Position numbers and translations under genes: made by a program
Assembly: GCF_041248615.1 (NCBI RefSeq)
Contig: NZ_CP158426.1
Length of the DNA: 64,000 nucleotides
Reading direction: 5' to 3' (one strand)
From: Escherichia coli
GTDB taxonomy: Bacteria; Pseudomonadota; Gammaproteobacteria; Enterobacterales; Enterobacteriaceae
Notes under the pieces: generated by a model
Seen by the model: the letters and a program-made list of their open reading frames with translations, nothing else
What the model was told of the DNA's origin: nothing
The model's database searches: none
In this document: positions 10,829 to 40,905 of the stretch, one piece after another
Numbering within the stretch: the stretch's first letter is position 1
How the letters are laid out: every line of letters begins with the position of its first letter

Positions 10829-11992
10829 TTACTTTTGATTGTCGATTCTGGTGAGAGCAACCAGCAATGCCAGCGTATAACACACCGTAATTGCCAGACT
10901 CATTTTTAACAGTGTTTCTCCGCCAATTCCCGACAATGGCGCGGCTATACCGCCGAAGACAAACATGCTCATCCCCATCAACGCAGACGCCGTTCCAGAT
11001 TCCTGCGTCCCTACTGCACTCATAGCCTCTGCCCCGCCAACAGTGCCGATGCCGCTACAAAATGCGATGGTGAAAAATAATGCCACCAGTGCCGGAATGG
11101 GCAATTGTATCCATGCGCATAAGACCGTGAGCAATGCACACAAAATTGCCGCTATCAGGCCACCTCGCAACAATGTCATCGCGTTAATCCGTCGCGCCAG
11201 GCGCGAGAAGATCCATGAAGCAATGATAAGTCCGATGCCGTTAAGGCCAAACACCAGGCTAAATTGCATTGGACTAAAGCCAAATTCCTTCTGCAACACG
11301 AACGACGAAGAGCCGATATATGCAAACAAACCGGCCAGCATAAAACTTTGAATCAGGCAAAAGCGCATAAAACGGCGGTTCTGCACCACGCTTCGTCCGG
11401 TTAATAGCAATGATGAGCCCCTTTTATTTTCTGGCAAGGTCTCATTAATAAATAACAGGCAGCCCAGCAACAGTACGGTGCTAATTTCAGCCATTACCCA
11501 GAATAAAGTGCGCCAGTCAAAAGTGCTGACAATGTACCCGCCCAGCACTGGCGACAACACCGGTGCCAGGCCATTCACCGTCATTAACAGCGCAAAAAAC
11601 TGGGTCAACGTTACTCCCTGATATTTGTCACGAGCAATAGAACGAGAGAGCACCGAACCACCCGCCCCCGCGATCCCTTGAATAAAACGCCAGACCACCA
11701 GCCAGTAAATATTGTTCGTTGTCGCGCACAAAATGGAAGAAACAATAAACAATAGCAACGACAAGATTAACGGACGTTTACGCCCTATTTTGTCGCTCAG
11801 AGGGCCAAATAACAGTTGTCCGACGCCAAGACCGATCAGCGATGCGGTCAGGGTTAATTGCGTTATGGTCGTGGTTGCCGCCAGTTGCTCAGACATCTCC
11901 GGCAAAGCCGGCAAATAAAGATCGGTACACATCGGGCCGATACCGGCTAAAAGACCAAGAATCAATGCCCATGAAAGAGAGACTCTAGCCAT
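10829..11992 (-). CDS. MFS drug efflux transporter (Bcr/CflA-like, DHA1 family)
   Basis: 387-aa ORF with about 12 predicted TM helices and MFS-type motifs (GPLSDKIGRKRP); last gene of the accessory efflux cluster. Confidence 0.75.
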   Translation of the reverse strand: MARVSLSWALILGLLAGIGPMCTDLYLPALPEMSEQLAATTTITQLTLTASLIGLGVGQLLFGPLSDKIGRKRPLILSLLLFIVSSILCATTNNIYWLVVWRFIQGIAGAGGSVLSRSIARDKYQGVTLTQFFALLMTVNGLAPVLSPVLGGYIVSTFDWRTLFWVMAEISTVLLLGCLLFINETLPENKRGSSLLLTGRSVVQNRRFMRFCLIQSFMLAGLFAYIGSSSFVLQKEFGFSPMQFSLVFGLNGIGLIIASWIFSRLARRINAMTLLRGGLIAAILCALLTVLCAWIQLPIPALVALFFTIAFCSGIGTVGGAEAMSAVGTQESGTASALMGMSMFVFGGIAAPLSGIGGETLLKMSLAITVCYTLALLVALTRIDNQK

Positions 11993-12000
11993 ATTATTCC

Positions 12001-13374
12001 TTACTTGAGTGATGACATGCCGCCGCCCAGCGACTGCCAGAGCGTGATTCGGTTTGTAAAATCAGTCAGTTGCAGTGCCAGCAGCTCCTGCTGTGCGCTC
12101 CACAAGCTGCGCTGCGCCGTCAACACGGTCAGGTAATCACCAACACCCGCCTGATAGCGACGCAAGCCAACATCGACCGTTTGTTGCTCAGCTTTAACAT
12201 ACTGGCGCTGTGCATCCAGTTGCTCTTCAAGCGTGGTCCGCCGCGCCAGTGCGTTAGCGACATCTTTAAATGCGCTCTGAACGGTTTTTTCATAGGTGGC
12301 AATGAGTCCACGCTTTTGTGCTTCTGCGTAACGAAGCTGCGCCAAATTACTTCCGCCAGTGAACAGCGGTAATGTGACCGATGGCGTAAATGACCAGATC
12401 TGCATTCCGTAGCTGAACAACGACGACAATGCGTCACTGCCAACACCAGCGCTGGCAGTCAGCGAAATCGTCGGAAAAAAGTTAGCCCGCGCCGCGCCAA
12501 TATCGGCATTGGCGCTCTTCAAATTATGTTCCGCTTCCTGGATATCCGGGCGACGCAGCAGAACGTCAGATGACACTCCCGCAGGAACCAGACTTATCAT
12601 CTGTTCCGGCAGGCTTTCCAGTGTTCCCGGTAGCAAATTTTCCTCAAGCGTTGTACCTGCCAGTAAGTTCAGCGCATTTTTATCCTGCATCACTTGTGTC
12701 TGATAGCTGGCAACGCTGGCGCGCGCTTGCTGATAAACACTCATCGCCTCACTGACATCTGTCGCTGCCGCCGTGCCAACCTGTTGCTGGCGCTGGATAA
12801 TTTTCAATGAGTTTTCTGCACTGGCCATCGTTTCTTTTGCCAGGGCCAGGTTGCTGTTATCAGCCGCCAGTGTCAGCCAGGCGGTGCTGATTTCAGCAAT
12901 CAGCGTTAAACGAGTGTTCTGGGCTGTAAATTCACTGGCAAGCCAGGTTTCCCGCGCCGCCCGAGATAAACTCTGATTACGACCAAACAGATCTAACGTA
13001 TAACTGGACACCGTGCCGTCAGCCTCGGCAGTTGTTCCCGTACCATTCGCCAGCGAACGACTGCGAGTCGAACTTAAGGCCGCATTCACCGTCGGGAATA
13101 ACGACGCATTAGTTTGCCCATAGAGCGCCCGTGCTGAGTCAATATCAGCAATCGCTTTTTGCACATCGCGGTTACTGTTCAGTGCAATGGTTACTACCTG
13201 CTGCAATCGGGGATCGTGGATCACCTGCTGCCAGTCATGGCTGATTGCCTTCCCCTGGCCCTGTGCTCCCGGCAAGGTCGCCGGGATTGGGGATTCAGGC
13301 GTACTGTAGTGGGGATCGAGCGAGACACATCCCGCACTCAACAGCACCAGAAAAATAAGAGAACGACGCAACAT
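12001..13374 (-). CDS. efflux outer-membrane factor lipoprotein (NodT/OprM family)
   Basis: 457-aa ORF with lipoprotein signal (LLSAGC); two-repeat architecture typical of TolC-like OMF proteins. Confidence 0.8.
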   Translation of the reverse strand: MLRRSLIFLVLLSAGCVSLDPHYSTPESPIPATLPGAQGQGKAISHDWQQVIHDPRLQQVVTIALNSNRDVQKAIADIDSARALYGQTNASLFPTVNAALSSTRSRSLANGTGTTAEADGTVSSYTLDLFGRNQSLSRAARETWLASEFTAQNTRLTLIAEISTAWLTLAADNSNLALAKETMASAENSLKIIQRQQQVGTAAATDVSEAMSVYQQARASVASYQTQVMQDKNALNLLAGTTLEENLLPGTLESLPEQMISLVPAGVSSDVLLRRPDIQEAEHNLKSANADIGAARANFFPTISLTASAGVGSDALSSLFSYGMQIWSFTPSVTLPLFTGGSNLAQLRYAEAQKRGLIATYEKTVQSAFKDVANALARRTTLEEQLDAQRQYVKAEQQTVDVGLRRYQAGVGDYLTVLTAQRSLWSAQQELLALQLTDFTNRITLWQSLGGGMSSLK

Positions 13375-13377
13375 AAC

Positions 13378-16300
13378 TTACTCCTGACGGCGCGGTTTAC
13401 CGGCAAACAAACGTTTCACCAGTACAAAAAACAGAGGAACAAAGAAAATAGCCAGCAACGTAGCGGTCAGCGTACCGCCAATAATGCCCGTACCAATGGC
13501 GATGCGGCTGTTCGCCCCTGCGCCGGTTGCTATCGCCAGCGGCATTACCCCCGCAATAAACGCCAGCGAGGTCATGATGATTGGGCGTAAACGAGTCTGC
13601 GCCGCGCGTAATGCCGCACGACTCAAGGAATAGCCCTCTGCAACCGCCGCTTCAGCAAATTCCACAATCAGAATGGCGTTTTTCGACGACAAGCCGATAG
13701 TGGTTAATAGCGCCACCTGGAAGTAAACATCGTTGTTTAAATCACGCATCCAGGCCGCCAGCGCCGCGCCAAGAAGCCCCAGAGGGATCACCAGAATGAC
13801 CGAGAACGGGACTGACCAGCTTTCGTACAGTGCTGCAAGGCAGAGGAAAACCACCAGAATAGAAACTGCATACAGACTTAATGCCTGACCGCTGGCCAGT
13901 TTCTCCTGCAATGACAAACCACTCCAGGCCCAGGTTGTTCCCGCAGGAAGACTGTTTGCCAGTTCCTCCATTTTTGTCATTGCATCGCCGGAACTAAAGC
14001 CAGTCGCATTTTCCCCCTGAATTTCATAGGCTGCAGAACCGTTGTAGCGCACCAGTCTTTCCGGTCCATACAGCCAGCGGGTGGTCGCAAAAGCAGAGAA
14101 TGGTGTCATGGCGTTATCGCTACCGCGCACAAACCATTTACCTAAGTCTGACGGCGCGGAACGAAATTCACTGTCGCCCTGAATGTAGACTTTTTTCACA
14201 CGACCACGGTCAATAAAGTCATTCACATAAGTACCGCCCCACGCACTGGACAGGGTGTCGGTGACATCATTCAAACTCAACCCTAATGACACCGCTTTAT
14301 TACTATCAATATCTACCTGCAATTGCGGCATTTGTGGCAAATCATTAGCACGCACAGAATGTAACTCCGGACTTTGATTCGCTTTTTCTATCAACTGATT
14401 ACGCATTTGCAGTAGTGTTTCGCGATCGGTTCCACCGTTAGCTAACAATTCAAACGTAAAACCATTGCTTTGCCCCAGCCCATCAACGGCTGGCGGCGTC
14501 ATCGCAAATACCGTGGCATCACGAATTGTGCCCAGCTCTTTGGTTGCCCGTAGGGCGATAGCCTGGGCGGTGTTTTCTGCCCCTTTACGTTGAGACCAGT
14601 TTTTCAACGAAACAAACGCCATCCCGGTGTTCTGTCCGCTGCCGCTAAAACTGAAACCATCAACGGTAAAAATAACATCGGTATTTGCTTTCTCATTAAT
14701 CAGGAACCAGTCAACAATCTGGCGATTCACTTCTGCTGTACGGGCAGCGGTCGCCCCGGCCGGCAGCGTGTACTGCACCATGATTTCGCCCTGGTCTTCA
14801 GTGGGTAAGAAACTGCCCGGCAGTTTCCACATCATCAGGGCCATTCCACCACCCAGTACGACATAAAGCCCCATCGTTCGAGCAGCACGGCGCAGGACAT
14901 AAATTACGCCTCGCTGATATTTATCTTCAGTACGGCGGTAAAAGCGGTTAAATGCGCCGAAAAAGCCTTTTTTATGTGGCGGAACATGCTGGAGGACGGA
15001 ACCGCACAGGGCGGGAGTCAAGGTCAATGCCACTACCACGGAAAGCAGCATTGCGGAGATAATGGTTATCGAAAACTGACGATAAATTACCCCCGTAGAT
15101 CCCCCAAAGAAGGCCATAGGCAGGAATACGGCTGATAACACCAGCGCAATGGCAACCAGTGCGCCAGAAATCTCGCCCATTGATTTTTCCGTGGCTTCAC
15201 GCGCGGGCAACCCTTCGTCACGCATAATGCGTTCGACGTTCTCCACCACCACAATGGCATCGTCCACCAGCAAGCCGATCGCCAGGACCATTGCAAACAA
15301 CGTCAGGGTATTAATCGAATAGCCAAACAACGCAAGAACGCCGAATGTGCCCAGCAAAACGACGGGGACAGCTAACGCCGGAATCAGTGTGGCACGCAGG
15401 TTTTGCAGGAATAAATACATCACGCAAACCACCAATACGATGGCTTCAAACAGCGTCTGAATTACGTCCTCTACAGAGATTTTAATAAATTCAGTGCTGT
15501 CTTTCGGGTATGCGATGTCGTATCCCTGCGGCATGTTCCGCTGGAATTCGGCAATCTTATCCTTGACCAGCGTCGCCGTATTCAGCGCATTCGCACCGGG
15601 CGAAAGCATTACAGCAACCCCGGCAGACGGGTGACCGTTAAGTTTGCCGATAGCGGTATAATCTTCACTGCCCATCTCAACGCGAGCCACATCTTTTATA
15701 CGAACAACTGCGCCGTCTGACTGGCTTTTCACGATAATATTTTTGAACTGATCCACCGTCTGCAAGCGAGACTGCGCACGTACCGTTGCGGTCAGTTGCT
15801 GAGTATTCGGTGAAGGCAATGCCCCTATTTTCCCGGCAGTAACCTGCACGTTTTGCGCTTCAATAGCACTTTGCACGTCTGAAGGCATTAGCGAGTAAGA
15901 CGCCAGTTTGGCCGGGTCAAGCCAGATGCGCATAGCGTATTCCGCGCCAAAGACTTGCAGACTCCCCACACCTTCAACACGCGCCAGCGGGTCCTGAACG
16001 TTACTAACCAACCAGTCGGCGATATCCGAACTGGAGGCTTTATCAGTGGTGTCATACACGGCAGCAATCAGCAAAAAGTTGCTTTGTGATTTCTCCACCG
16101 TAACACCCGTTTGCTGCACTTCGCTGGGTAGGCGCGACTCCGCCTGCTGAATTTTATTCTGCACCTGAACCTGTGCAGTATCTGGATCGGTACCTTGTTC
16201 AAAGGTCACATTAATACTGACCGAACCATCAGAGCTACTGGTTGAGCTGAAATAGAGTAAATTATCAAGCCCAGTGAGTTGTTGCTCGATAACCTGAGTC

Positions 16301-16485
16301 ACGCTGTTCTCCAGCGTTTCGGCAGAAGCACCAGTATAAGTGGCTGAAATTTTAATGGTCGGCGGTGCAACGTCAGGATATTGCGCGACGGGTAATGTGC
16401 GAATAGCCAGAATCCCCGCCAACATAATCAAAATGGCGATAACCCAGGCAAAGACCGGGCGGCGAACAAAAAAGCGCGAAAACAT
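13378..16485 (-). CDS. RND multidrug efflux pump, inner-membrane permease (AcrB/MexB-like HAE1)
   Basis: 1035-aa ORF; N-terminus MFSRFFVRRPVFAWVIAILIMLAG is the hallmark AcrB-family start; 12 TM helices and two large periplasmic loops. Confidence 0.9.
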   Translation of the reverse strand: MFSRFFVRRPVFAWVIAILIMLAGILAIRTLPVAQYPDVAPPTIKISATYTGASAETLENSVTQVIEQQLTGLDNLLYFSSTSSSDGSVSINVTFEQGTDPDTAQVQVQNKIQQAESRLPSEVQQTGVTVEKSQSNFLLIAAVYDTTDKASSSDIADWLVSNVQDPLARVEGVGSLQVFGAEYAMRIWLDPAKLASYSLMPSDVQSAIEAQNVQVTAGKIGALPSPNTQQLTATVRAQSRLQTVDQFKNIIVKSQSDGAVVRIKDVARVEMGSEDYTAIGKLNGHPSAGVAVMLSPGANALNTATLVKDKIAEFQRNMPQGYDIAYPKDSTEFIKISVEDVIQTLFEAIVLVVCVMYLFLQNLRATLIPALAVPVVLLGTFGVLALFGYSINTLTLFAMVLAIGLLVDDAIVVVENVERIMRDEGLPAREATEKSMGEISGALVAIALVLSAVFLPMAFFGGSTGVIYRQFSITIISAMLLSVVVALTLTPALCGSVLQHVPPHKKGFFGAFNRFYRRTEDKYQRGVIYVLRRAARTMGLYVVLGGGMALMMWKLPGSFLPTEDQGEIMVQYTLPAGATAARTAEVNRQIVDWFLINEKANTDVIFTVDGFSFSGSGQNTGMAFVSLKNWSQRKGAENTAQAIALRATKELGTIRDATVFAMTPPAVDGLGQSNGFTFELLANGGTDRETLLQMRNQLIEKANQSPELHSVRANDLPQMPQLQVDIDSNKAVSLGLSLNDVTDTLSSAWGGTYVNDFIDRGRVKKVYIQGDSEFRSAPSDLGKWFVRGSDNAMTPFSAFATTRWLYGPERLVRYNGSAAYEIQGENATGFSSGDAMTKMEELANSLPAGTTWAWSGLSLQEKLASGQALSLYAVSILVVFLCLAALYESWSVPFSVILVIPLGLLGAALAAWMRDLNNDVYFQVALLTTIGLSSKNAILIVEFAEAAVAEGYSLSRAALRAAQTRLRPIIMTSLAFIAGVMPLAIATGAGANSRIAIGTGIIGGTLTATLLAIFFVPLFFVLVKRLFAGKPRRQE

Positions 16486-17606
16486 CAGGCGTTGCCTCCA
16501 TTAGCCTGAACTTCAACAGCCTTGACGGTCTGCCCTGAAGTGACTTTGGCAGAACCTTCAACAATCAGTCGGTCGCCGTTGTGCAGGCCGTTCAGCACCA
16601 GCCATTTATCACCATACGTTTCTCCCGTTTCGAGCGTTCGCTGCTCTACTTTATTGTCTTTATTCACCACCAGCGCAGTTGCATTGCCTTTAGCATCGCG
16701 CGTGACGCCCTGTTGCGGCGCGAGAATAGCGTCTTCCATCACGCCTTCATCGACACGAGCGCGAACAAACATTCCCGGTAATAACTGCTGTTGTGGATTG
16801 GGGAAAATCGCCCGTAATGTCACCGAACCGGTAGACTCATCTACAGCGACTTCGGTGAGTTCCAGACGCCCTTTTTCGCTGTAGGTTGTGCCATCTTCCA
16901 GAATAAGTGAGACGCTCATGGTGTCACTGTTGGTCGCCAGTGACTGTTTACGCAGACGTAATAAATCGACACTGGAGCGAGTGAGGTCGACATACATTGT
17001 ATCCAGACCACGAATAGTCGTTAACGCTGTATCTTGCGACGCGGTCACCAGTGCGCCAGGGGTTACCGACGAAATGCCAATGCGCCCTGAAATCGGTGCG
17101 GTTACCGTGGTCCAGTCAAGATTAATGCGCGCAGTTTCCAGCGCGGCTTTTTTCGCCTCTACACTGGCTTTATCTTGTGCACAGGTAGACTGAGCATCAT
17201 CAGCATCCTGTTGTGAAACACCGTTCTCTTTCACCAGTCGGGCATAACGCTGCGCTTTCTGGCAATCGGCTTTTACCAGTGCCTGTGCTTGTTGTAATGC
17301 TGCCCGAGCTTCATTCCATGCAGCCTGATAACTGGCCGCATCAATCTGGTAGAGAGGCTGTCCAGCCTTGACCAGATCACCTTCCTTAAATAAGCGTTTC
17401 TGGATAATTCCCCCAACCTGCGGACGTACTTCAGCACTGAGCGCAGCACTGGTGCGTCCGGTTAATTCACTGACTACCGAAACAGGTTGAGATTTGAGCG
17501 TAACAACGCCGACTTCTGTTTCTGACGGGGATGAATTGTTACTTTGCGTATTATCACAACCCGATAAGAGCAGCATTGCCACTACAGATGTTGCTATATA
17601 CTTCAT
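16485..17606 (-). CDS. RND efflux membrane fusion protein (AcrA/MexA-like periplasmic adaptor)
   Basis: ORF with lipoprotein signal MKYIATSVVAMLLLSGC; start chosen at the ATG preceded by GGAG (ORF track extends to 17639); 1-nt overlap with the RND gene. Confidence 0.8.
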   Translation of the reverse strand: MKYIATSVVAMLLLSGCDNTQSNNSSPSETEVGVVTLKSQPVSVVSELTGRTSAALSAEVRPQVGGIIQKRLFKEGDLVKAGQPLYQIDAASYQAAWNEARAALQQAQALVKADCQKAQRYARLVKENGVSQQDADDAQSTCAQDKASVEAKKAALETARINLDWTTVTAPISGRIGISSVTPGALVTASQDTALTTIRGLDTMYVDLTRSSVDLLRLRKQSLATNSDTMSVSLILEDGTTYSEKGRLELTEVAVDESTGSVTLRAIFPNPQQQLLPGMFVRARVDEGVMEDAILAPQQGVTRDAKGNATALVVNKDNKVEQRTLETGETYGDKWLVLNGLHNGDRLIVEGSAKVTSGQTVKAVEVQANGGNA

Positions 17607-17657
17607 TATTTTCTCCAGGGTGAGAAATACCCTCCTCATTGAAATTAATGAGGATAT

Positions 17658-17736
17658 GTCAGGGATATTCAGTTATAACGAACCCGCATCGCGAAATGAA
17701 TTTCGCAATGAAATAAGGGGGATTAATATCCCCCGC
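17658..17736. promoter_or_regulatory. palindrome-rich region between the tetR-like gene and the efflux operon (candidate operator plus terminator hairpin)
   Basis: inverted repeats cctcatt-N6-aatgagg and gcgaaat-ga-atttcgc, followed by the hairpin gggggattaatatccccc. Confidence 0.4.
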
Positions 17737-17754
17737 TATTGGTTAATTCTGTTC

Positions 17755-18321
17755 TTATTTATTTATCAACATACTAACAATATCCTGATATATTTCCTGC
17801 AGATGTTGTGGATCGCTTTTTTGCGGTGTTAAACGACGATAAACCGTACCTTCCATCATGGTAGCAAACACTTCAACGCAGCAACGAATGTGCTCGTCGC
17901 TAAGATGGGGATGCATTCTTTTCATATGTGCACAACCGTTAGCGAACATTCTGGCGTCAGCTTCTTCAAGCATTGCCATAACCCGCGGGTTGCGTGTGGC
18001 TTCTGCAGCCACTTCCAGCATCAGCGCGTCGTCGTCCTCATTTAAGGATTTACGCAAGGCAAGGACTTCCGGGAAGTGATCGGTACGCGCGTCAATGTCC
18101 ATTTGGGCAATACGAAAGTCGATGATACGGCGAACCATCTCTTCAATAATGGCGTCTTTGTTGGCGAAGTAACGATATATCTGACCCACGCTAAGCTGAG
18201 CTTCGCTGGCAATTTGCGACATACTGGCGGCATGAAACCCGCAGCGACGAAAACACCGACGGGCGGCGTTAATGATTTCATCCTGACGCTGTTTGTGGCG
18301 TATCTCCAGCTTGCTGGTCAT
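17755..18321 (-). CDS. TetR/AcrR-family transcriptional regulator
   Basis: TetR-type HTH (AARRCFRRCGFHAASMSQIASEAQLSVGQIYRYFANKD) near the N-terminus when started at MTSKLEIRH (AGGAGA RBS); ORF track extends to 18420. Confidence 0.75.
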   Translation of the reverse strand: MTSKLEIRHKQRQDEIINAARRCFRRCGFHAASMSQIASEAQLSVGQIYRYFANKDAIIEEMVRRIIDFRIAQMDIDARTDHFPEVLALRKSLNEDDDALMLEVAAEATRNPRVMAMLEEADARMFANGCAHMKRMHPHLSDEHIRCCVEVFATMMEGTVYRRLTPQKSDPQHLQEIYQDIVSMLINK

Positions 18322-31325: not shown

Positions 31326-34001
31326 TTACTTCAACATATTACGAATGACATAATGCAAAATGCCGTCGTTCTGGTAGTAGGTCAACTCCGTCGCGGTGTC
31401 GATACGACAACGGCAGGGTACGACATCCTGGCTACCATCCGCGCGCGTAAGCGTCACCGGAACCGTCGCGCCGGGTTGTAGACTTTGCAGATCGACAATA
31501 TCAATCTTCTCTTCCCCGATTAGCCCTAACGTTTTACGCGTCACGCCTTGCGGAAATTCCAGCGGCAGGATGCCCATGCCAATTAAATTCGAGCGGTGAA
31601 TTCGTTCAAACGATTCGGCAATCACCACACGAATTCCAAGCAGACGCGGACCTTTTGCCGCCCAGTCACGGCTGGAGCCTGATCCATACTCTTTCCCGGC
31701 AATCACCGCCAGCGGCGTTTGCTCCTGCTTATAGCGCATCGCAGCATCATAAATAGAGACTACGTCGCTGTCAGGTAAATGCCGCGTCATCCCCCCTTCA
31801 ACGCCAGGCACCATTTCATTACGGATGCGAATATTGGCGAAGGTGCCGCGCATCATCACTTCATGGTTACCACGCCGCGAACCGTAGGAGTTAAAGTCTT
31901 TTCGCTCAACACCCCGACCTTGTAGATATCGACCCGCCGGGCTGTCGGGCTTAATACTGCCCGCCGGAGAGATATGGTCAGTGGTGACTGAATCCCCCAG
32001 CATTGCGAGGATCCGCGCACCGTGAATATCTTCCACAGGTGCTGGTGTTGCCTGCATTTCATCAAAGAAAGGCGATAAGCGAATATAGGTTGAATCCTCC
32101 TGCCAACCGTAGGTATCGGATCGTGCGACGTTAATTTCCTTCCACTCTGCTGTGCCTTCAAAAACTTCTGCGTACTCTTTACGGAACATTTCTGTGGAGA
32201 CTTGTTCTACCGCACGGGCAATTTCTTGTGCCGAGGGCCAGATATCTTTCAGATATACCGGGTCGCCTTTACGATCGTGACCAATAGGCTCAGAAGCGAG
32301 GTTAATATTCATATTTCCCGCCAGCGCATAGGCAACCACCAGCGGCGGCGAGGCCAGCCAGTTAGTTTTAACCAGCGGATGGATACGGCCTTCAAAGTTA
32401 CGGTTGCCGGACAGCACCGCACCGACGGTTAAATCGCCTTTTTTGATTGCCGTTTCGATAGGATCGGGCAATGGACCAGAGTTACCAATACAGGTGGTAC
32501 AACCGTATCCCACAAGGTTAAATCCCAGTTCATCCAGATACGGTGTCAGTTTCGCTTTTGCCAGATAATCAGAAACGACTTTCGAGCCTGGTGCCAGCGA
32601 CGCTTTGACCCACGGTTGCCGCTTGAGGCCCAGAGTTACGGCTTTTTTCGCCAGCAAACCTGCGGCCATCAGCACACTTGGGTTAGAGGTGTTGGTGCAC
32701 GACGTTATCGCAGCAATGACCACCGCGCCATCAGGTAACTGATACTGATGTCCGTTCATAACATAATCGACCGGCTGGCGATCTTTATGCGTGGCATTTA
32801 CTTCCAGTTCGTTACTGGCGGCAAATGCTTTTGGTACATCGGGCAGTGCAACGCGATCCTGTGGGCGTTTTGGCCCTGCCAGGCTCGCTTCAACGTCATT
32901 CATATCCAGTTCTAACGTACTGGTAAAAATCGGTTCATCGCCCGGGTTACGCCACATGCCCTGCGCTTTGGCATATTTTTCGACCAACTCGACCTGATCT
33001 TCGCTGCGCCCGCTTAAACGCATGTAATCGAGGGTGACAGCATCGATTGGGAAGAAGCCACAGGTGGCACCATATTCTGGCGACATATTGGCAATGGTGG
33101 CGCGATCCGCCAGCGGTAGTGAATCCAGCCCATCACCATAAAATTCGACGAATTTCCCCACCACACCATGTTTGCGCAGCATTTGGGTAACGGTGAGAAC
33201 CAGGTCTGTGGCGGTAATACCTTCACGTAATTTTCCGGTGAGTTTAAAGCCCACTACGTCTGGGATAAGCATGGAAACCGGCTGACCTAACATTGCGGCT
33301 TCTGCTTCGATCCCCCCCACGCCCCACCCCAGCACGCCAAGGCCGTTGATCATGGTGGTGTGCGAGTCAGTACCAACGAGTGTATCCGGATAAGCAATCC
33401 ATTCACCGTCCTGCAATTCGCTCCACACTGCTTTGCCGAGATATTCGAGGTTAACCTGATGGCAAATGCCTGTGCCTGGCGGCACGACGCTAAAACGACT
33501 GAACGCCTGCTTTCCCCATTTCAGGAACACATAACGTTCGTGGTTGCGCTCCATTTCCAGGCGCACGTTTTCTTCAAATGCCTCATCATCACCAAAACGA
33601 TCGACGGTCACCGAGTGGTCAATGACCAGGTCGACCGGTGAGAGCGGGTTAACCTTTGCAGTATCGCCACCGAGGCGTTTAACCGCTTCGCGCATTGCCG
33701 CCAGATCAACAACGGCAGGTACGCCGGTAAAGTCCTGCATCAGCACCCTTGCCGGGCGGTAGGCAATTTCACGGTCAGCATGGGCATTTTTCAGCCATCC
33801 CGCCAGCGCGTGGATATCCTCTTCGGTAACCGAGTTACCATCCTGCCAGCGCAGCAGGTTTTCGAGCAAAACTTTGAGTGACTTGGGCAGACGGGTGATA
33901 TTGCCCAGTGATTTGGCAGCAAGCGGCAGGCTGTAGTAGTGGTAAGTTTTATCTTTGGCCTGCAACGTGTCCTTACTGGCTTCTCGTAGGGTTGACGACA
34001 T
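31326..34001 (-). CDS. acnA: aconitate hydratase A
   Basis: 891-aa ORF matching AcnA. Confidence 0.95.
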
Positions 34002-34164
34002 AGCTCCTCCTTAATGACAGGGTTGCGACGCCCTGATTCTCTTCAGGGTGAATATTAAAGATAACACAAACATCGCGTAACGATTTGATAACAACCCAAA
34101 TTGATAAAAGAGGAGAAACCTTGTGGCAAAGCAAATGAAAACCCCGCCGCAGCGGGGTCAGGTA

Positions 34165-34260
34165 TCAGTGAGTAATGATCCAGAGGAATTCGGCCCAGAA
34201 GAGCATCGACAGAGAAAACGCGCCCATCCAGGACCAATATTTCATATTTGTGTTGATCAT
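34165..34260 (-). CDS. 31-aa hydrophobic small ORF upstream of acnA (possibly the small protein annotated as ymiC in K-12)
   Basis: hand translation of the minus strand gives MINTNMKYWSWMGAFSLSMLFWAEFLWIITH with an AAGGTG-like RBS; below the ORF-track length cutoff. Confidence 0.4.
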   Translation of the reverse strand: MINTNMKYWSWMGAFSLSMLFWAEFLWIITH

Positions 34261-34373
34261 AGGCTACACCTTTAACGGTTATTACTTTGTGTTGAGATAA
34301 CTCAACCTGTTATTGCTGCGGTGTATTAAAAGCCCTTTAATTCATTAAAAATGGGTAATAAGAATGATGATAA

Positions 34374-34541
34374 TTATTGTTTCGGCTGATCATCTTCAGC
34401 AAACAGTTCTATAAAGGCTTGCTGCTGCGATGTTAGTTGCCAGTCGTCTGGAATAACGACGGAACATTCCCGTTTCGTTTCTGTGTCATTGTCACTATGC
34501 TGGCATAATGGTGACGACTCCAGTTGCTCCTGACCGACCAT
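34374..34541 (-). CDS. yciX: small protein YciX
   Basis: ORF matches YciX from MVGQEQLESSPLCQHSDNDTETKRE (55 aa). Confidence 0.65.
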   Translation of the reverse strand: MVGQEQLESSPLCQHSDNDTETKRECSVVIPDDWQLTSQQQAFIELFAEDDQPKQ

Positions 34542-34543
34542 AG

Positions 34544-34684
34544 TTATCCCCACACTTTCCAAATCAGCAGTGCGACAACCACCCAGAAAAGTGCAGAACC
34601 AAGAAAAACCGCCAGCCAGGCTTTACGTTTTAATTCAGGATCGCGGCGGGGTTCCTGATTTCCAGAAGGCATTGCTAACCTCAT
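34544..34684 (-). CDS. ymiA: small membrane protein YmiA
   Basis: hand translation of the minus strand gives MRLAMPSGNQEPRRDPELKRKAWLAVFLGSALFWVVVALLIWKVWG; sits directly upstream of and abutting yciX as in K-12; below the ORF-track cutoff. Confidence 0.55.
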   Translation of the reverse strand: MRLAMPSGNQEPRRDPELKRKAWLAVFLGSALFWVVVALLIWKVWG

Positions 34685-34917
34685 ATAATCGCCATCACTT
34701 ATCAGCAAGACGTTGAACGATTGGTGTAATTAATCATACGATGAGACAAATCCTAAAGAAACTTTAGTCAAAAATCCAGCGAATTTACGAATCGTCTCCA
34801 GTGAATAATTCAATCTTTTGACCTGAAATAGATATTTGAAAACTGGAATTTGCGAGGCGGGTAATTAGACACTACTTTACAGGTAATTTACCCTATAAAT
34901 ATGAGGGATAAAAATAT

Positions 34918-34926
34918 TGTGCACGG
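34918..34926. repeat. IS1 target-site duplication, left copy (TGTGCACGG)
   Basis: 9-bp direct repeat identical to 35695..35703, immediately flanking the IS1 ends. Confidence 0.85.
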
Positions 34927-34981
34927 GGTGATGCTGCCAACTTACTGATTTAGTGTATGATGGTGTTTTTGAGGTGCTCCA

Positions 34982-35257
34982 GTGGCTTCTGTTTCTATCA
35001 GCTGTCCCTCCTGTTCAGCTACTGACGGGGTGGTGCGTAACGGCAAAAGCACCGCCGGACATCAGCGCTATCTCTGCTCTCACTGCCGTAAAACATGGCA
35101 ACTGCAGTTCACTTACACCGCTTCTCAACCCGGTACGCACCAGAAAATCATTGATATGGCCATGAATGGCGTTGGATGCCGGGCAACCGCCCGCATTATG
35201 GGCGTTGGCCTCAACACGATTTTCCGCCATTTAAAAAACTCAGGCCGCAGTCGGTAA
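34982..35257 (+). CDS. insA: IS1 InsA (transposition inhibitor / N-terminal part of the transposase)
   Basis: 91-aa ORF with zinc-finger CPSC...CSHC; matches IS1 InsA. Confidence 0.9.
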
Positions 35258-35679
35258 CCTCGCGCATACAGCCGGGCAGTGACGTCATCGTCTGCGCGGA
35301 AATGGACGAACAGTGGGGATACGTCGGGGCTAAATCGCGCCAGCGCTGGCTGTTTTACGCGTATGACAGGCTCCGGAAGACGGTTGTTGCGCACGTATTC
35401 GGTGAACGCACTATGGCGACGCTGGGGCGTCTTATGAGCCTGCTGTCACCCTTTGACGTGGTGATATGGATGACGGATGGCTGGCCGCTGTATGAATCCC
35501 GCCTGAAGGGAAAGCTGCACGTAATCAGCAAGCGATATACGCAGCGAATTGAGCGGCATAACCTGAATCTGAGGCAGCACCTGGCACGGCTGGGACGGAA
35601 GTCGCTGTCGTTCTCAAAATCGGTGGAGCTGCATGACAAAGTCATCGGGCATTATCTGAACATAAAACACTATCAATAA
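35176..35679 (+). CDS. insB: IS1 InsB frame (expressed as the InsAB' transposase by -1 frameshift at the A6C motif near 35233)
   Basis: 167-aa ORF matching IS1 InsB; overlaps insA in the -1 frame; slippery sequence TTTAAAAAAC present. Confidence 0.85.
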
Positions 35680-35694
35680 GTTGGAGTCATTACC

Positions 35695-35703
35695 TGTGCA
35701 CGG
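35695..35703. repeat. IS1 target-site duplication, right copy (TGTGCACGG)
   Basis: identical to 34918..34926. Confidence 0.85.
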
Positions 35704-35779
35704 TATACAAATAAGTAACAAAAGAGAATATATTCCGGCACCTTCGCTACATAAAAGGTGCCGAAAATAACGCAAGAAA

Positions 35780-36778
<999 letters not shown>

Positions 36779-36963: not shown

Positions 36964-39561
36964 TTATTTTTTCCCTTCAACCCATTTGCCATCAACATAA
37001 AATGCTGACCAGCCAGTCGCCTTTCCGTCTTTTTCCGAAGAGACATATTGCTGTTTGGTTTTACGGCTAAAGCGAACCATGGTCTTATTACCTTCCGGAT
37101 CCTGCTGTGGCGCATCGGCCAGATAACGCAGTTTTTCCGGCAGACGGTCGCGGAAGCGATAAAGCTCTTCCACCAATGGCGCACGTGTTTCACGCGATTT
37201 CGGGAAGGTATTGGCCGCCAGGAACACACCGGCAGCACCGTCACGCAGCACGAAATAGGCATCTGATTTTTCGCACGGCAGCTCAGGTAATGGCACCGGA
37301 TCTTCTTTCGGTGGTGCCACTTCGCCGTTACGTAAAATCTTACGTGTGTTTTTACACTCTTCGTTGGTGCAGGCCATGTATTTACCGAAACGCCCCATTT
37401 TCAGGTGCATTTCAGAGCCACATTTTTCACACTCAACGATCGGGCCGTCATAACCTTTAATGCGGAATTCGCCCTCTTCGATCTCGTAACCGTCGCAGGT
37501 TGGGTTATTACCACAGACATGCAACTTACGTTTCGGATCGATGAGATAGCTGTCCATCGCCGTGCCGCATTTCGGGCAACGACGTTTTGCGCGCAGCGCG
37601 TTGGTTTCAGCGTCTTCACCTTCCAGCACGTTCAGCACTTCGTTTTCCGGCACCAGGTTAATGGTGGTTTTGCAACGCTCTTTTGGCGGCAGCGCATAAC
37701 CAGAACAGCCAAGGAATACCCCGGTGCTCGCTGTGCGAATCCCCATTTTGCGACCACAAGTCGGGCAGTCAATGCTGGTCAGAACCATCTGGTTCGGGCG
37801 CATACCCCCCTCTTCCGGATCTTTTTCAGCTTTATCTAACTGCTGGGTGAAATCCGAGAAGAAGTGATCCAGTACAGCTTTCCACTCTGCTTCGTGATTT
37901 GCCACCTGGTCGAGGCTGTTTTCCATCTGCGCGGTGAAGTCGTAGTTCATTAACTCGCGGAAATTCTCTTCCAGGCGATCGGTGACGATTTCGCCCATTT
38001 TTTCCGCATAGAAACGACGATTTTCTACTCGCACATAGCCACGATCCTGAATGGTCGAAATGATCGATGCATAGGTAGACGGACGACCGATACCGCGTTT
38101 TTCCAGCTCTTTAACCAGCGATGCTTCACTAAAACGGGCTGGCGGCTTGGTAAAGTGCTGGGCTGGTGTCAGTTCAACGAGCGTCAGAGCATCGCCTTTA
38201 TCGACTGCCGGTAAGATACGATCTTCATCGCCTTTACGCAGTGCAGGCATCACTTTTGTCCAGCCATCAAAGCGCAAAATACGACCGCGTGCTTTCAGGC
38301 GGAAATCGCCCGCACCAACGGTCAGCGTCGTGGAGTCATATTTCGCTGGGGTCATCTGGCAGGCAACGAACTGACGCCAGATTAACTGGTACAGTTTCTG
38401 CGCATCTGCTTCCATATCCTTCAGCGATTCCGCCATCACATTGACGTCAGAAGGACGAATCGCTTCGTGCGCTTCCTGTGAGTTTTCTTTGCTGGCGTAC
38501 TGATTCGGACTTTCCGGCAGATATTTCTTACCAAAATTATCGCTGATATAACCGCGAACCATATTTACCGCGTCCTGACTCAGGTTAGTGGAGTCGGTAC
38601 GCATGTAAGTGATATAGCCTGCTTCATACAAACGCTGCGCCATCATCATGGTTTTTTTCACGCCAAAACCAAGACGGGTGCTGGCAGCTTGTTGCAGCGT
38701 AGAGGTAATAAAAGGAGCGCCAGGTTTACTGGTTGTCGGTTTGTCTTCACGTTCCAGCACGCTGTAGCGCGCTTTTTCCAGCAGACTTACCGCAGCCTGA
38801 GTTTGTTCTTTGTTGACCGGGCGGAACGGTTTGTCGTTCTGATGAGTCACCTGCAACGCCAACGCATCACCAGATGGCGTGGTTGTGCTGGCATCGACTT
38901 CCCAGAACTCTTCCGGTACGAACGCTTTAATTTCACGCTCACGCTCGACCACCAGTCGAACCGCCACCGACTGAACACGACCTGCAGACAGACCACGAGC
39001 GATCTTTTTCCACAGCAGCGGCGAAACCATATACCCCACCACGCGGTCCATAAAGCGACGCGCCTGCTGGGCATTAACACGATCAATATTCAGCTCACCT
39101 GGTTTGTTAAATGCCTGGCGGATCGCGTTTTTAGTAATTTCGTTAAACACCACTCGGCTATAGCGCGCATCATCACCACCAATCACTTCCCGCAGGTGCC
39201 ATGCAATGGCTTCCCCTTCGCGGTCAAGGTCGGTTGCGAGATAGATGTGGTCGGCTTTTTCAGCCAGTTGTTTCAGTTCAGAGACGACCTTCTCTTTACC
39301 AGGCAACACTTCATAGTGCGCCTCCCAATTGTGCCACGGGTCAACCCCCATACGGTTGACGAGAGCGCCACGTTCATCCTTTTTAGGCTTTTTAGCCGTC
39401 TTGGTGGAGGTAGAGTCGGCACTCTTTTTGGCAGCTGAGCCACTGGTCGGCAAATCGCGGATGTGACCGACGCTGGATTTCACCACGTAGTCACTACCCA
39501 GATACTTGTTGATCGTTTTGGCTTTTGCCGGGGACTCAACGATGACAAGAGCTTTACCCAT
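36964..39561 (-). CDS. topA: DNA topoisomerase I
   Basis: ORF matches TopA from [22 protein letters not shown] (865 aa); C-terminal zinc ribbons present. Confidence 0.95.
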
Positions 39562-40192: not shown

Positions 40193-40202
40193 AAATAAAT
40201 AT

Positions 40203-40226
40203 CCTCCGGCATAGCCGGAGGTTTTT
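40203..40226 (+). terminator. yciN intrinsic terminator
   Basis: hairpin cctccggc-ata-gccggagg followed by ttttt. Confidence 0.6.
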
Positions 40227-40227
40227 C

Positions 40228-40905
40228 AAATGCGCCTGTAAGGCTCTGTTACCAGCCGCGCCCTAACAGGCGCATACGATCTGACATTTGCATTCAACTT
40301 CGTTACTTACGGCCCGTAAACGGGCTGCCCGGATAGGGAATCGATAACTGCTCCCCCATTTTATCCTCTTCAAGCTGGTGCTTTATGTAGTCCTGTATCT
40401 TCGCCGTGTTCTTACCCACCGTATCGACATAGTACCCTCGGCACCAGAACTCCCTGTTTCTGTATTTGAATTTCAAATCCCCAAACTGCTCGTAAAGCAT
40501 CAGACTGCTTTTCCCTTTCAGATATCCCATAAAGCCGGATACGCTCATTTTGGGTGGGATTTCCACAAGCATATGGATATGATCTGCGCAGCACTCTGCT
40601 TCCAGAATCCGTACGCTTTTCCACTCACACAGCTTTCTCAAAATACTGCCTATCGCCCTACGCTTCTCTCCGTAAAACGCCAGTCTTCGGTATTTCGGCG
40701 CAAAAACTATGTGATATTTACAGTTCCAGCGGGTGTGCGCTAAGCTCTTTTCGTCCCCCATTGGGACCCCCTTTTGATTTCTTGTTTGACACTTGCAGTT
40801 GCCAGACCGCAAGGTGTTTTAACAAATCAAAAGGGGTTTTAATAACTGGCTCAAAGCTGAAAGCTTTCCGGAACCCCCAGCCTAGCTGGGGGTTTTCTGT
40901 GCACA
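40228..40905 (-). mobile_element. IS200-type insertion sequence (IS200/IS605 family); boundaries approximate
   Basis: contains a Y1 transposase gene matching IS200 TnpA, plus the characteristic 5' structures: an end-proximal hairpin (40873..40893) and a long stem-loop (about 40767..40836) that occludes the tnpA RBS; no TSD, as expected for this family. Confidence 0.6.
40303..40761 (-). CDS. tnpA: IS200 transposase TnpA (HUH/Y1 family)
   Basis: 152-aa ORF from MGDEKSLAHTRWNCKYHIVFAPKYRR with the HxH motif (ADHIHML) and catalytic Tyr region; track ORF has a 17-aa extension. Confidence 0.9.
   Translation of the reverse strand: MGDEKSLAHTRWNCKYHIVFAPKYRRLAFYGEKRRAIGSILRKLCEWKSVRILEAECCADHIHMLVEIPPKMSVSGFMGYLKGKSSLMLYEQFGDLKFKYRNREFWCRGYYVDTVGKNTAKIQDYIKHQLEEDKMGEQLSIPYPGSPFTGRK

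Follow-up and report, generated by a model that had tools for sequence, protein, structure and literature searches.

The stretch of Escherichia coli DNA analysed here (64,000 nucleotides, referred to as the window) carries an insertion sequence, IS1, in the spacer between cysB and ymiA. Without the element, this intergenic region is 318 bp long and contains 34.6% G+C, compared with 49.9% for the window. The genes around it are arranged as follows.

31326-34001, minus strand: acnA (annotation)
34165-34260, minus strand: ymiC (annotation)
34374-34541, minus strand: yciX (annotation)
34544-34684, minus strand: ymiA, first gene of ymiA-yciX-ymiC (ORF list, annotation)
35733-35766, minus strand: intrinsic terminator hairpin of cysB, intact, with a 13-pair stem and a T-rich tail
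35780-36754, minus strand: cysB, intact (ORF list, annotation)
36964-39561, minus strand: topA (annotation)

The right end of IS1 is 85 bp from the stop codon of cysB (35780), its left end 242 bp from the annotated ATG of ymiA (34684). The initial annotation had placed the element just downstream of cysB and about 240 bp upstream of the ymiA start, which these distances bear out.

Some observations concern the neighbouring genes themselves. The annotated ymiA ATG is replaced by ACG, GTG or AAG in several genera, while the arrangement of GAGG, seven nucleotides and a second ATG (34672-34670) is invariant. Translation of ymiA thus probably begins at what is annotated as Met5. Between yciX and acnA, the Rfam family STnc180, a small RNA, gives a full-length match of 198.8 bits at 34131-34333 (minus strand), overlapping ymiC. 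Elsewhere in the window, a 710-bp insertion at 40195-40904, between yciN and sohB, is absent from strain KE55 and contains an annotated IS200/IS605-family tnpA (40303-40761). Between sapF and fabI (10829-18321, minus strand) there are genes for an MFS transporter, an outer-membrane factor, an RND permease, a periplasmic adaptor and a TetR regulator. This five-gene block, presumably absent from K-12, looks like an accessory efflux island.

The element, its target and its allele

Few mobile elements have been studied as thoroughly as IS1. Judged by its sequence, the copy described here has all parts of a functional one.

34918-34926, no strand: target-site duplication, left copy TGTGCACGG (repeat finder; present once at the corresponding K-12 position)
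34927-35694, plus strand: IS1, an IS1B/IS1D-like allele by comparison with K-12 copies, with IRL toward ymiA and IRR toward cysB
34927-34949, plus strand: IRL, left terminal inverted repeat GGTGATGCTGCCAACTTACTGAT (repeat finder)
34982-35257, plus strand: insA, 91 aa, GTG start, zinc-ribbon and HTH repressor and N-terminal part of the transposase (ORF list)
35176-35679, plus strand: insB' frame ORF, DDE catalytic part, expressed only as the InsAB' fusion (ORF list, Pfam DDE_Tnp_IS1)
35233-35239, plus strand: A6C (AAAAAAC) programmed -1 frameshift site, IS1 nt 307-313 (motif position)
35672-35694, plus strand: IRR, right terminal inverted repeat ATCAATAAGTTGGAGTCATTACC (repeat finder)
35695-35703, no strand: target-site duplication, right copy TGTGCACGG (repeat finder)

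The element spans exactly 768 bp and is labelled in RefSeq as an IS1-like element IS1B family transposase. Its 23-nt terminal repeats are complementary at 18 of 23 positions (78%); such an imperfect pair is normal for IS1, and both ends match those of K-12 IS1A and IS1B identically. In IRL, too, the sequence is that of the IS1A end, every difference from IS1A being confined to IS1 nt 262-444. Reconstruction of the frame with a -1 shift at A6C predicts an uninterrupted InsAB' of 232 aa, open to the end. Three Pfam families match it far over their cut-offs: Zn_ribbon_InsA (PF03811, 73.9 bits), HTH_Tnp_IS1 (PF12759, 96.6 bits) and DDE_Tnp_IS1 (PF03400, 260.7 bits), the last of which spans residues 102-232. 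The NCBIfam equivalog of IS1 transposase, transpos_IS1 (NF033558), scores 243.8 bits against a cut-off of 100. The family is characterised by a length of about 768 bp and by imperfect terminal inverted repeats of about 23-30 bp that start with GGT(G/A)ATG. Length, inverted repeats, insA and insB' with A6C, transposase domains, target duplication and near-identity to reference copies all place the element in the IS1 family. With up to three mismatches allowed, no second IS1 end was found elsewhere in the 64-kb window.

The two copies of TGTGCACGG are identical at 9 of 9 positions, for which the chance in a given pair of 9-mers is about 4e-6; the 9-mer is found just once more within the window. 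The target duplication of IS1 follows a rule of 8-9 bp (PMC12428005). K-12 has exactly one TGTGCACGG, at the predicted homologous position, as the comparison with an empty site proposed in the initial annotation would have it, and differs from the reconstructed empty site of our strain in only 2 of the 318 intergenic bases. The flanks of the element are collinear with the empty sites of both K-12 and KE55. With a perfect duplication, this collinearity and all coding features intact, the element is a simple insertion that has stayed unrearranged since. The initial annotation thus proved right on structure: it had described a complete 768-bp IS1 with intact terminal inverted repeats, intact insA, insB and A6C site and a perfect 9-bp duplication, and had concluded that simple transposition took place and that nothing was rearranged afterwards.

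The whole window is identical to positions 2915672-2979671 of the chromosome of strain NRZ14408 (NZ_LT599825.1), a German mcr-1/KPC-2 clinical isolate. Among complete E. coli genomes, NRZ14408 is the only one that matches the filled 2-kb region in one piece at 100%, and the only one with IS1 at exactly this position. The reconstructed empty site (203 bp) is present in 5416 of 5426 such genomes at a coverage of at least 80%. It is from this uniqueness among complete genomes, and from nothing else, that a recent age of the insertion can be argued. KE55 was considered as a close relative that might date the event, as it is 100% identical at two control regions, but over 45 kb its identity is 99.0-99.6%. 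It is therefore not a sister strain and cannot date the insertion.

The allele deserves a separate comment. It differs from K-12 IS1B at 2 positions (766/768, 99.7%) and from IS1A at 7 (761/768, 99.1%). These are exactly the seven substitutions at nt 262-444 that are common to K-12 types II and III (PMC12428005). With IS1B and IS1C of K-12 MG1655 it shares the length of 768 bp, the inverted repeats, the A6C site and the InsA protein, in which Phe occupies the variable position of NTI(F/L)RHL where IS1A has Leu; unlike IS1B, it lacks the private substitutions at nt 127 and nt 704. Compared with IS1A and IS1E (the "consensus" IS1, IS1R type), length, ends, gene layout and frameshift signal are alike, and the seven substitutions, one of which changes InsA (L to F), set it apart. 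In strain BW25113, IS1A/E account for more than 99.9% of transposition, and K-12 alleles of the IS1B/C/D type are reported to be almost unable to transpose (PMC12428005). In contrast to these copies, reported as nearly immobile, our allele occurs in identical form (768/768) in NRZ14408, MIN6 and ST540, each time at another site; copies elsewhere occupy 301-1068 of locus L015 (ST540) and 302-1069 of locus L023. The MIN6 copy has its own 9-bp duplication CTGTTATTG, and at the ST540 copy the left flank is rearranged or foreign. Because it is identical at three sites in three strains, the allele must have moved in nature, by itself or helped in trans. This is at odds with a simple reading of the published finding that IS1 types other than the consensus hardly move.

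The region upstream of ymiA as a target of IS1

For comparison, cysB loci were fetched from 80 species, ymiA, yciX and acnA were located in them, and the cysB-to-ymiA spacer was aligned for 25 species. In these 25 enterobacterial species the length of the spacer is conserved, at about 320-360 bp, and one part of it is conserved in sequence as well.

34685-34865, minus strand: conserved non-coding block of about 180 bp upstream of ymiA (25-species alignment, loci L029-L101)

The block is strongly conserved from Escherichia to Buttiauxella and Cedecea, in at least 20 enterobacterial genera. The approximately 110 bp between it and the cysB terminator, including the IS1 target, cannot be aligned outside Escherichia. 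The target is separated from the terminator by about 30 bp on one side and from the block, which lies nearer to ymiA, by about 60 bp on the other.

Within the block there are an invariant TTAGGATT, a PhoP-box-like direct repeat xGTTTx-N5-xATTTx and an IHF-like motif at 34808-34820. In the ymiA leader and block, RNAalifold gave no sign of a conserved structure (-0.39 kcal/mol, no compensatory pairs), and on these grounds a structured leader or riboswitch upstream of ymiA was rejected. Rfam likewise had no match in the cysB-ymiA intergenic region or in IS1, STnc180 over ymiC being its only one. A set of protein-binding sites is the more likely nature of the block. The ymiA-yciX-ymiC genes behave as a PhoQP-dependent operon that is induced by low Mg2+, with promoter activity upstream of ymiA, and overproduction of YmiA lengthens the lag phase (PMC11429745). 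The block is likely to be the control region of this operon.

IS1 is found in this region far beyond NRZ14408. Searching with the filled region returned 29 other genomes with IS1 in the same orientation within the 2 kb, and a synthetic query with the element inverted added 389 more. When 521 bp of K-12 sequence with the cysB-ymiA spacer at the centre serve as the query, 456 of 5421 genomes give a split match, against 18 and 15 genomes in the same test on two AT-rich control intergenic regions of the window. The trpA-yciG region was uninformative as a control: coverage falls below 80% in 729 genomes, but only 36 extra places appear, so the loss reflects divergence or absence and not insertions. 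Within the 318-bp cysB-ymiA intergenic region, IS1 is present in about 8% of complete E. coli genomes; it is responsible in roughly 410 of the 456 or more interrupted genomes.

Representatives of both searches, 22 further IS1-bearing loci (L003-L027), were mapped against the K-12 locus (L017). On the ymiA side of the target, adding 33623 to a K-12 locus position gives the window coordinate. Orientation is stated relative to the IS1 of the window.

K-12 locus 1092-1100: IS1 site, 9-bp duplication, same orientation
K-12 locus 1124-1131: IS1 site, 8-bp duplication, same orientation
K-12 locus 1124-1132: IS1 site, 9-bp duplication, both orientations
K-12 locus 1146-1153: IS1 site, 8-bp duplication, both orientations
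K-12 locus 1147-1154: IS1 site, 8-bp duplication, same orientation
K-12 locus 1148-1155: IS1 site, 8-bp duplication, same orientation
K-12 locus 1170-1178: IS1 site, 9-bp duplication, same orientation
K-12 locus 1172-1180: IS1 site, 9-bp duplication, same orientation
K-12 locus 1295-1303: IS1 site, 9-bp duplication, the window's own insertion

At least 12 IS1 events can be separated in the 318 bp, for example four in K-12 locus 1146-1155 and three at 1124-1132. The hot spots proper cover about 34723-34803 of the window (K-12 locus 1092-1180), with at least four events within 10 bp at CAAAAATCCA, at least three at CAAATCCTA and two at CGTCTCCAGTG. Both orientations and several IS1 alleles are represented, alleles at the mapped sites having from 0 to 52 mismatches to K-12 IS1A. 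All of the recurrent sites fall inside the conserved block, 5-85 bp from the IHF-like motif; in pBR322, IHF reportedly binds close to the main hot spot for IS1. A single junction, inverted IS1 at CAAAAATC (window 34769-34776), is shared by 356 genomes and may represent either one ancestral event or several. An apparent orientation bias was rejected, the first search having joined same-strand pieces only; when the 356 genomes with the shared junction are left aside, the orientations are about equal (roughly 33 versus 30). The window's own site was hit only once and coincides with none of the hot positions.

Other copies at the locus have more complicated histories. In ECCTRSRTH03, IS1 is accompanied by an adjacent deletion of 107 bp inside the conserved block, and in EC0880B_R4, a laboratory-derived isolate, ymiA and the 5' part of yciX, encoding its N-terminus, are gone; in ST540 its left flank is foreign. 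None of these three has a target duplication. In XJW9B277, IS150 is nested inside IS1 and the 8-bp duplication CAAAAATC is kept. IS1 was also mapped to ymiC, to two sites in the ymiC-yciX interval and to the cysB-topA interval. In CUVET18-789, IS1 interrupts the last codons of cysB (K-12 locus 1392-1399), and the annotated CysB has an altered, slightly longer C-terminus.

Repeated independent insertion of IS1, in excess over control DNA, makes this region a hot spot, which is a property of the region and not of the window copy. Because IS1 makes up roughly 410 of the 456 or more interruptions, its own target preference is favoured over a general selection to break the operon, although selection is possible as well. 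In the literature library that was searched, no paper connected IS1 with ymiA.

Probable effect of the insertion in NRZ14408

We consider it probable that an intact IS1 entered the AT-rich cysB-ymiA spacer by simple insertion, specifically in strain NRZ14408, and is close to neutral for its host. InsAB', produced by rare -1 frameshifting at A6C, would have bound the inverted repeats and joined the element to the target, presumably chosen for the AT-richness of the region (35% G+C). The insertion itself took place through a staggered 9-bp cut of TGTGCACGG and subsequent repair, with the flanks unrearranged since. The consequence is probably close to neutral: cysB and its terminator remain intact, and the ymiA block is likewise intact, now 777 bp further from cysB. 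At most, a weak hybrid promoter formed by IRL and its flank might add some PhoP-independent transcription toward ymiA-yciX-ymiC. Strain-specific IS1 insertions are common, with about 160 unique sites in 95 ST131 genomes (PMC8764528). What counts against this account is the near-immobility reported for IS1B/C/D types (PMC12428005), which bears on the source of the donor or of the transposase.

Two structural alternatives can be set beside this simple insertion. An IS1 copy might have been misplaced during repeat resolution of the NRZ14408 assembly; the element is multicopy in this chromosome, where 8 places match the 2-kb query, and repeats are a classic source of misassembly. However, misplacing a repeat would not produce two perfect copies of a 9-bp sequence that the empty site has only once, and collinearity of both flanks with other genomes also speaks against an artefact, so we assign it a negligible probability. 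Equally negligible, and refuted by the sequence, is the chance that we see the remnant of a larger IS1-mediated event, such as an end of a composite transposon, an adjacent deletion or an inversion breakpoint. Events of this kind are seen at the locus in ECCTRSRTH03, EC0880B_R4 and ST540, but all three lack a duplication, whereas NRZ14408 keeps its duplication and every base of the empty site, and no second IS1 end exists in 64 kb. The functional alternative, which we hold to be unlikely, is that the insertion is regulatory and rewires ymiA-yciX-ymiC, either by a sigma-70 promoter composed of IRL and flank, giving PhoP-independent expression, or by moving the promoter away from an upstream activator site specific to E. 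coli. The first arm has a concrete candidate.

34913-34940, minus strand: candidate outward hybrid promoter facing ymiA, -35 TTGGCA (34940-34935) in IRL, -10 AATATT (34918-34913) in the flank

TTGGCA lies 8 bp from the end of the element and is spaced by 16 nt from AATATT and by 18 nt from TATTTT, and IS1 ends are documented to form hybrid promoters (PMC8764528, PMC9330008). The candidate has nevertheless only 9 of 12 consensus matches and no extended -10, and shuffled sequence yields comparable matches about as often (4 found versus 3.1 +/- 1.5 expected per region). When three genes with IS1 upstream were assayed by qRT-PCR, transcript was raised, lowered or unchanged depending on geometry, and only one of the three insertions raised it (PMC8764528). 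Like the hybrid promoters of blaTEM, acrEF and, in ST131, afaA, the candidate combines an outward -35 in the inverted repeat with a possible -10 in the flank; unlike them, it is mediocre in geometry and hexamers and 242 bp away from the gene. Also in favour of a regulatory insertion, a PhoP-box-like repeat TGTTACTTATTTGTATA (35720-35704) directly abuts the duplication on its cysB side, the operon is PhoQP-dependent, and overproduced YmiA prolongs the lag phase (PMC11429745). Yet this repeat has three mismatches to the consensus and is unconserved beyond Escherichia, and a better-placed, conserved repeat exists in the block near ymiA. The idea that IS1 splits a PhoP promoter was dropped for the same reasons; the PhoP-box search gave only matches with three mismatches. 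An E. coli-specific promoter or PhoP site may still lie near the target. A near-neutral passenger is rated well above a regulatory insertion.

Because the target lies in the non-conserved spacer, outside the conserved block, no large effect on ymiA-yciX-ymiC or acnA is expected. The mapped acnA promoters are reported to lie about 50 and 407 bp upstream of its start codon; the IS1 target, 926 bp upstream, is well beyond both, and an effect on acnA is thus unlikely. The structural reading of the initial annotation stands in full, whereas its functional suggestion, altered expression of the neighbouring genes, is retained as a possibility only, a strong effect being made less likely by the comparative evidence.

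A further explanation concerns the locus as a whole: the ymiA-yciX-ymiC control region would be a genuine, previously undescribed IS1 hot spot whose insertions are retained for rewiring of the low-Mg2+ response. The response of the operon might be uncoupled or rewired by these insertions, and marginally also by the outward -35 of the NRZ14408 copy. IS1's taste for AT-rich, possibly IHF-bent DNA may explain the insertions as well, and we find this combined explanation rather improbable. A parallel is offered by the IS1 and IS5 insertions upstream of bglGFB, which activate the operon by disrupting silencing in AT-rich DNA: the cysB-ymiA spacer, too, is an AT-rich regulatory intergenic region, and one that is hit repeatedly in populations. 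The window IS1, in contrast, is outside the conserved control block, and H-NS silencing of ymiA would be hypothetical.

Taken together, the probably near-neutral insertion in NRZ14408 is an element already known, an ordinary intact IS1 behaving as expected, and strain-specific copies of this kind are routine. By itself, an IS1 near cysB is of little importance, although it offers a clean annotation marker for the NRZ14408 lineage. Its allele adds a natural case of an IS1B/D-like type having moved, though K-12 copies of the type are reported to be nearly inactive. Only the hot-spot pattern seen in other genomes is mildly new; the map of recurrent insertions in the conserved block supplies ready-made natural promoter-disruption alleles for studying the low-Mg2+ operon or the choice of targets by IS1.
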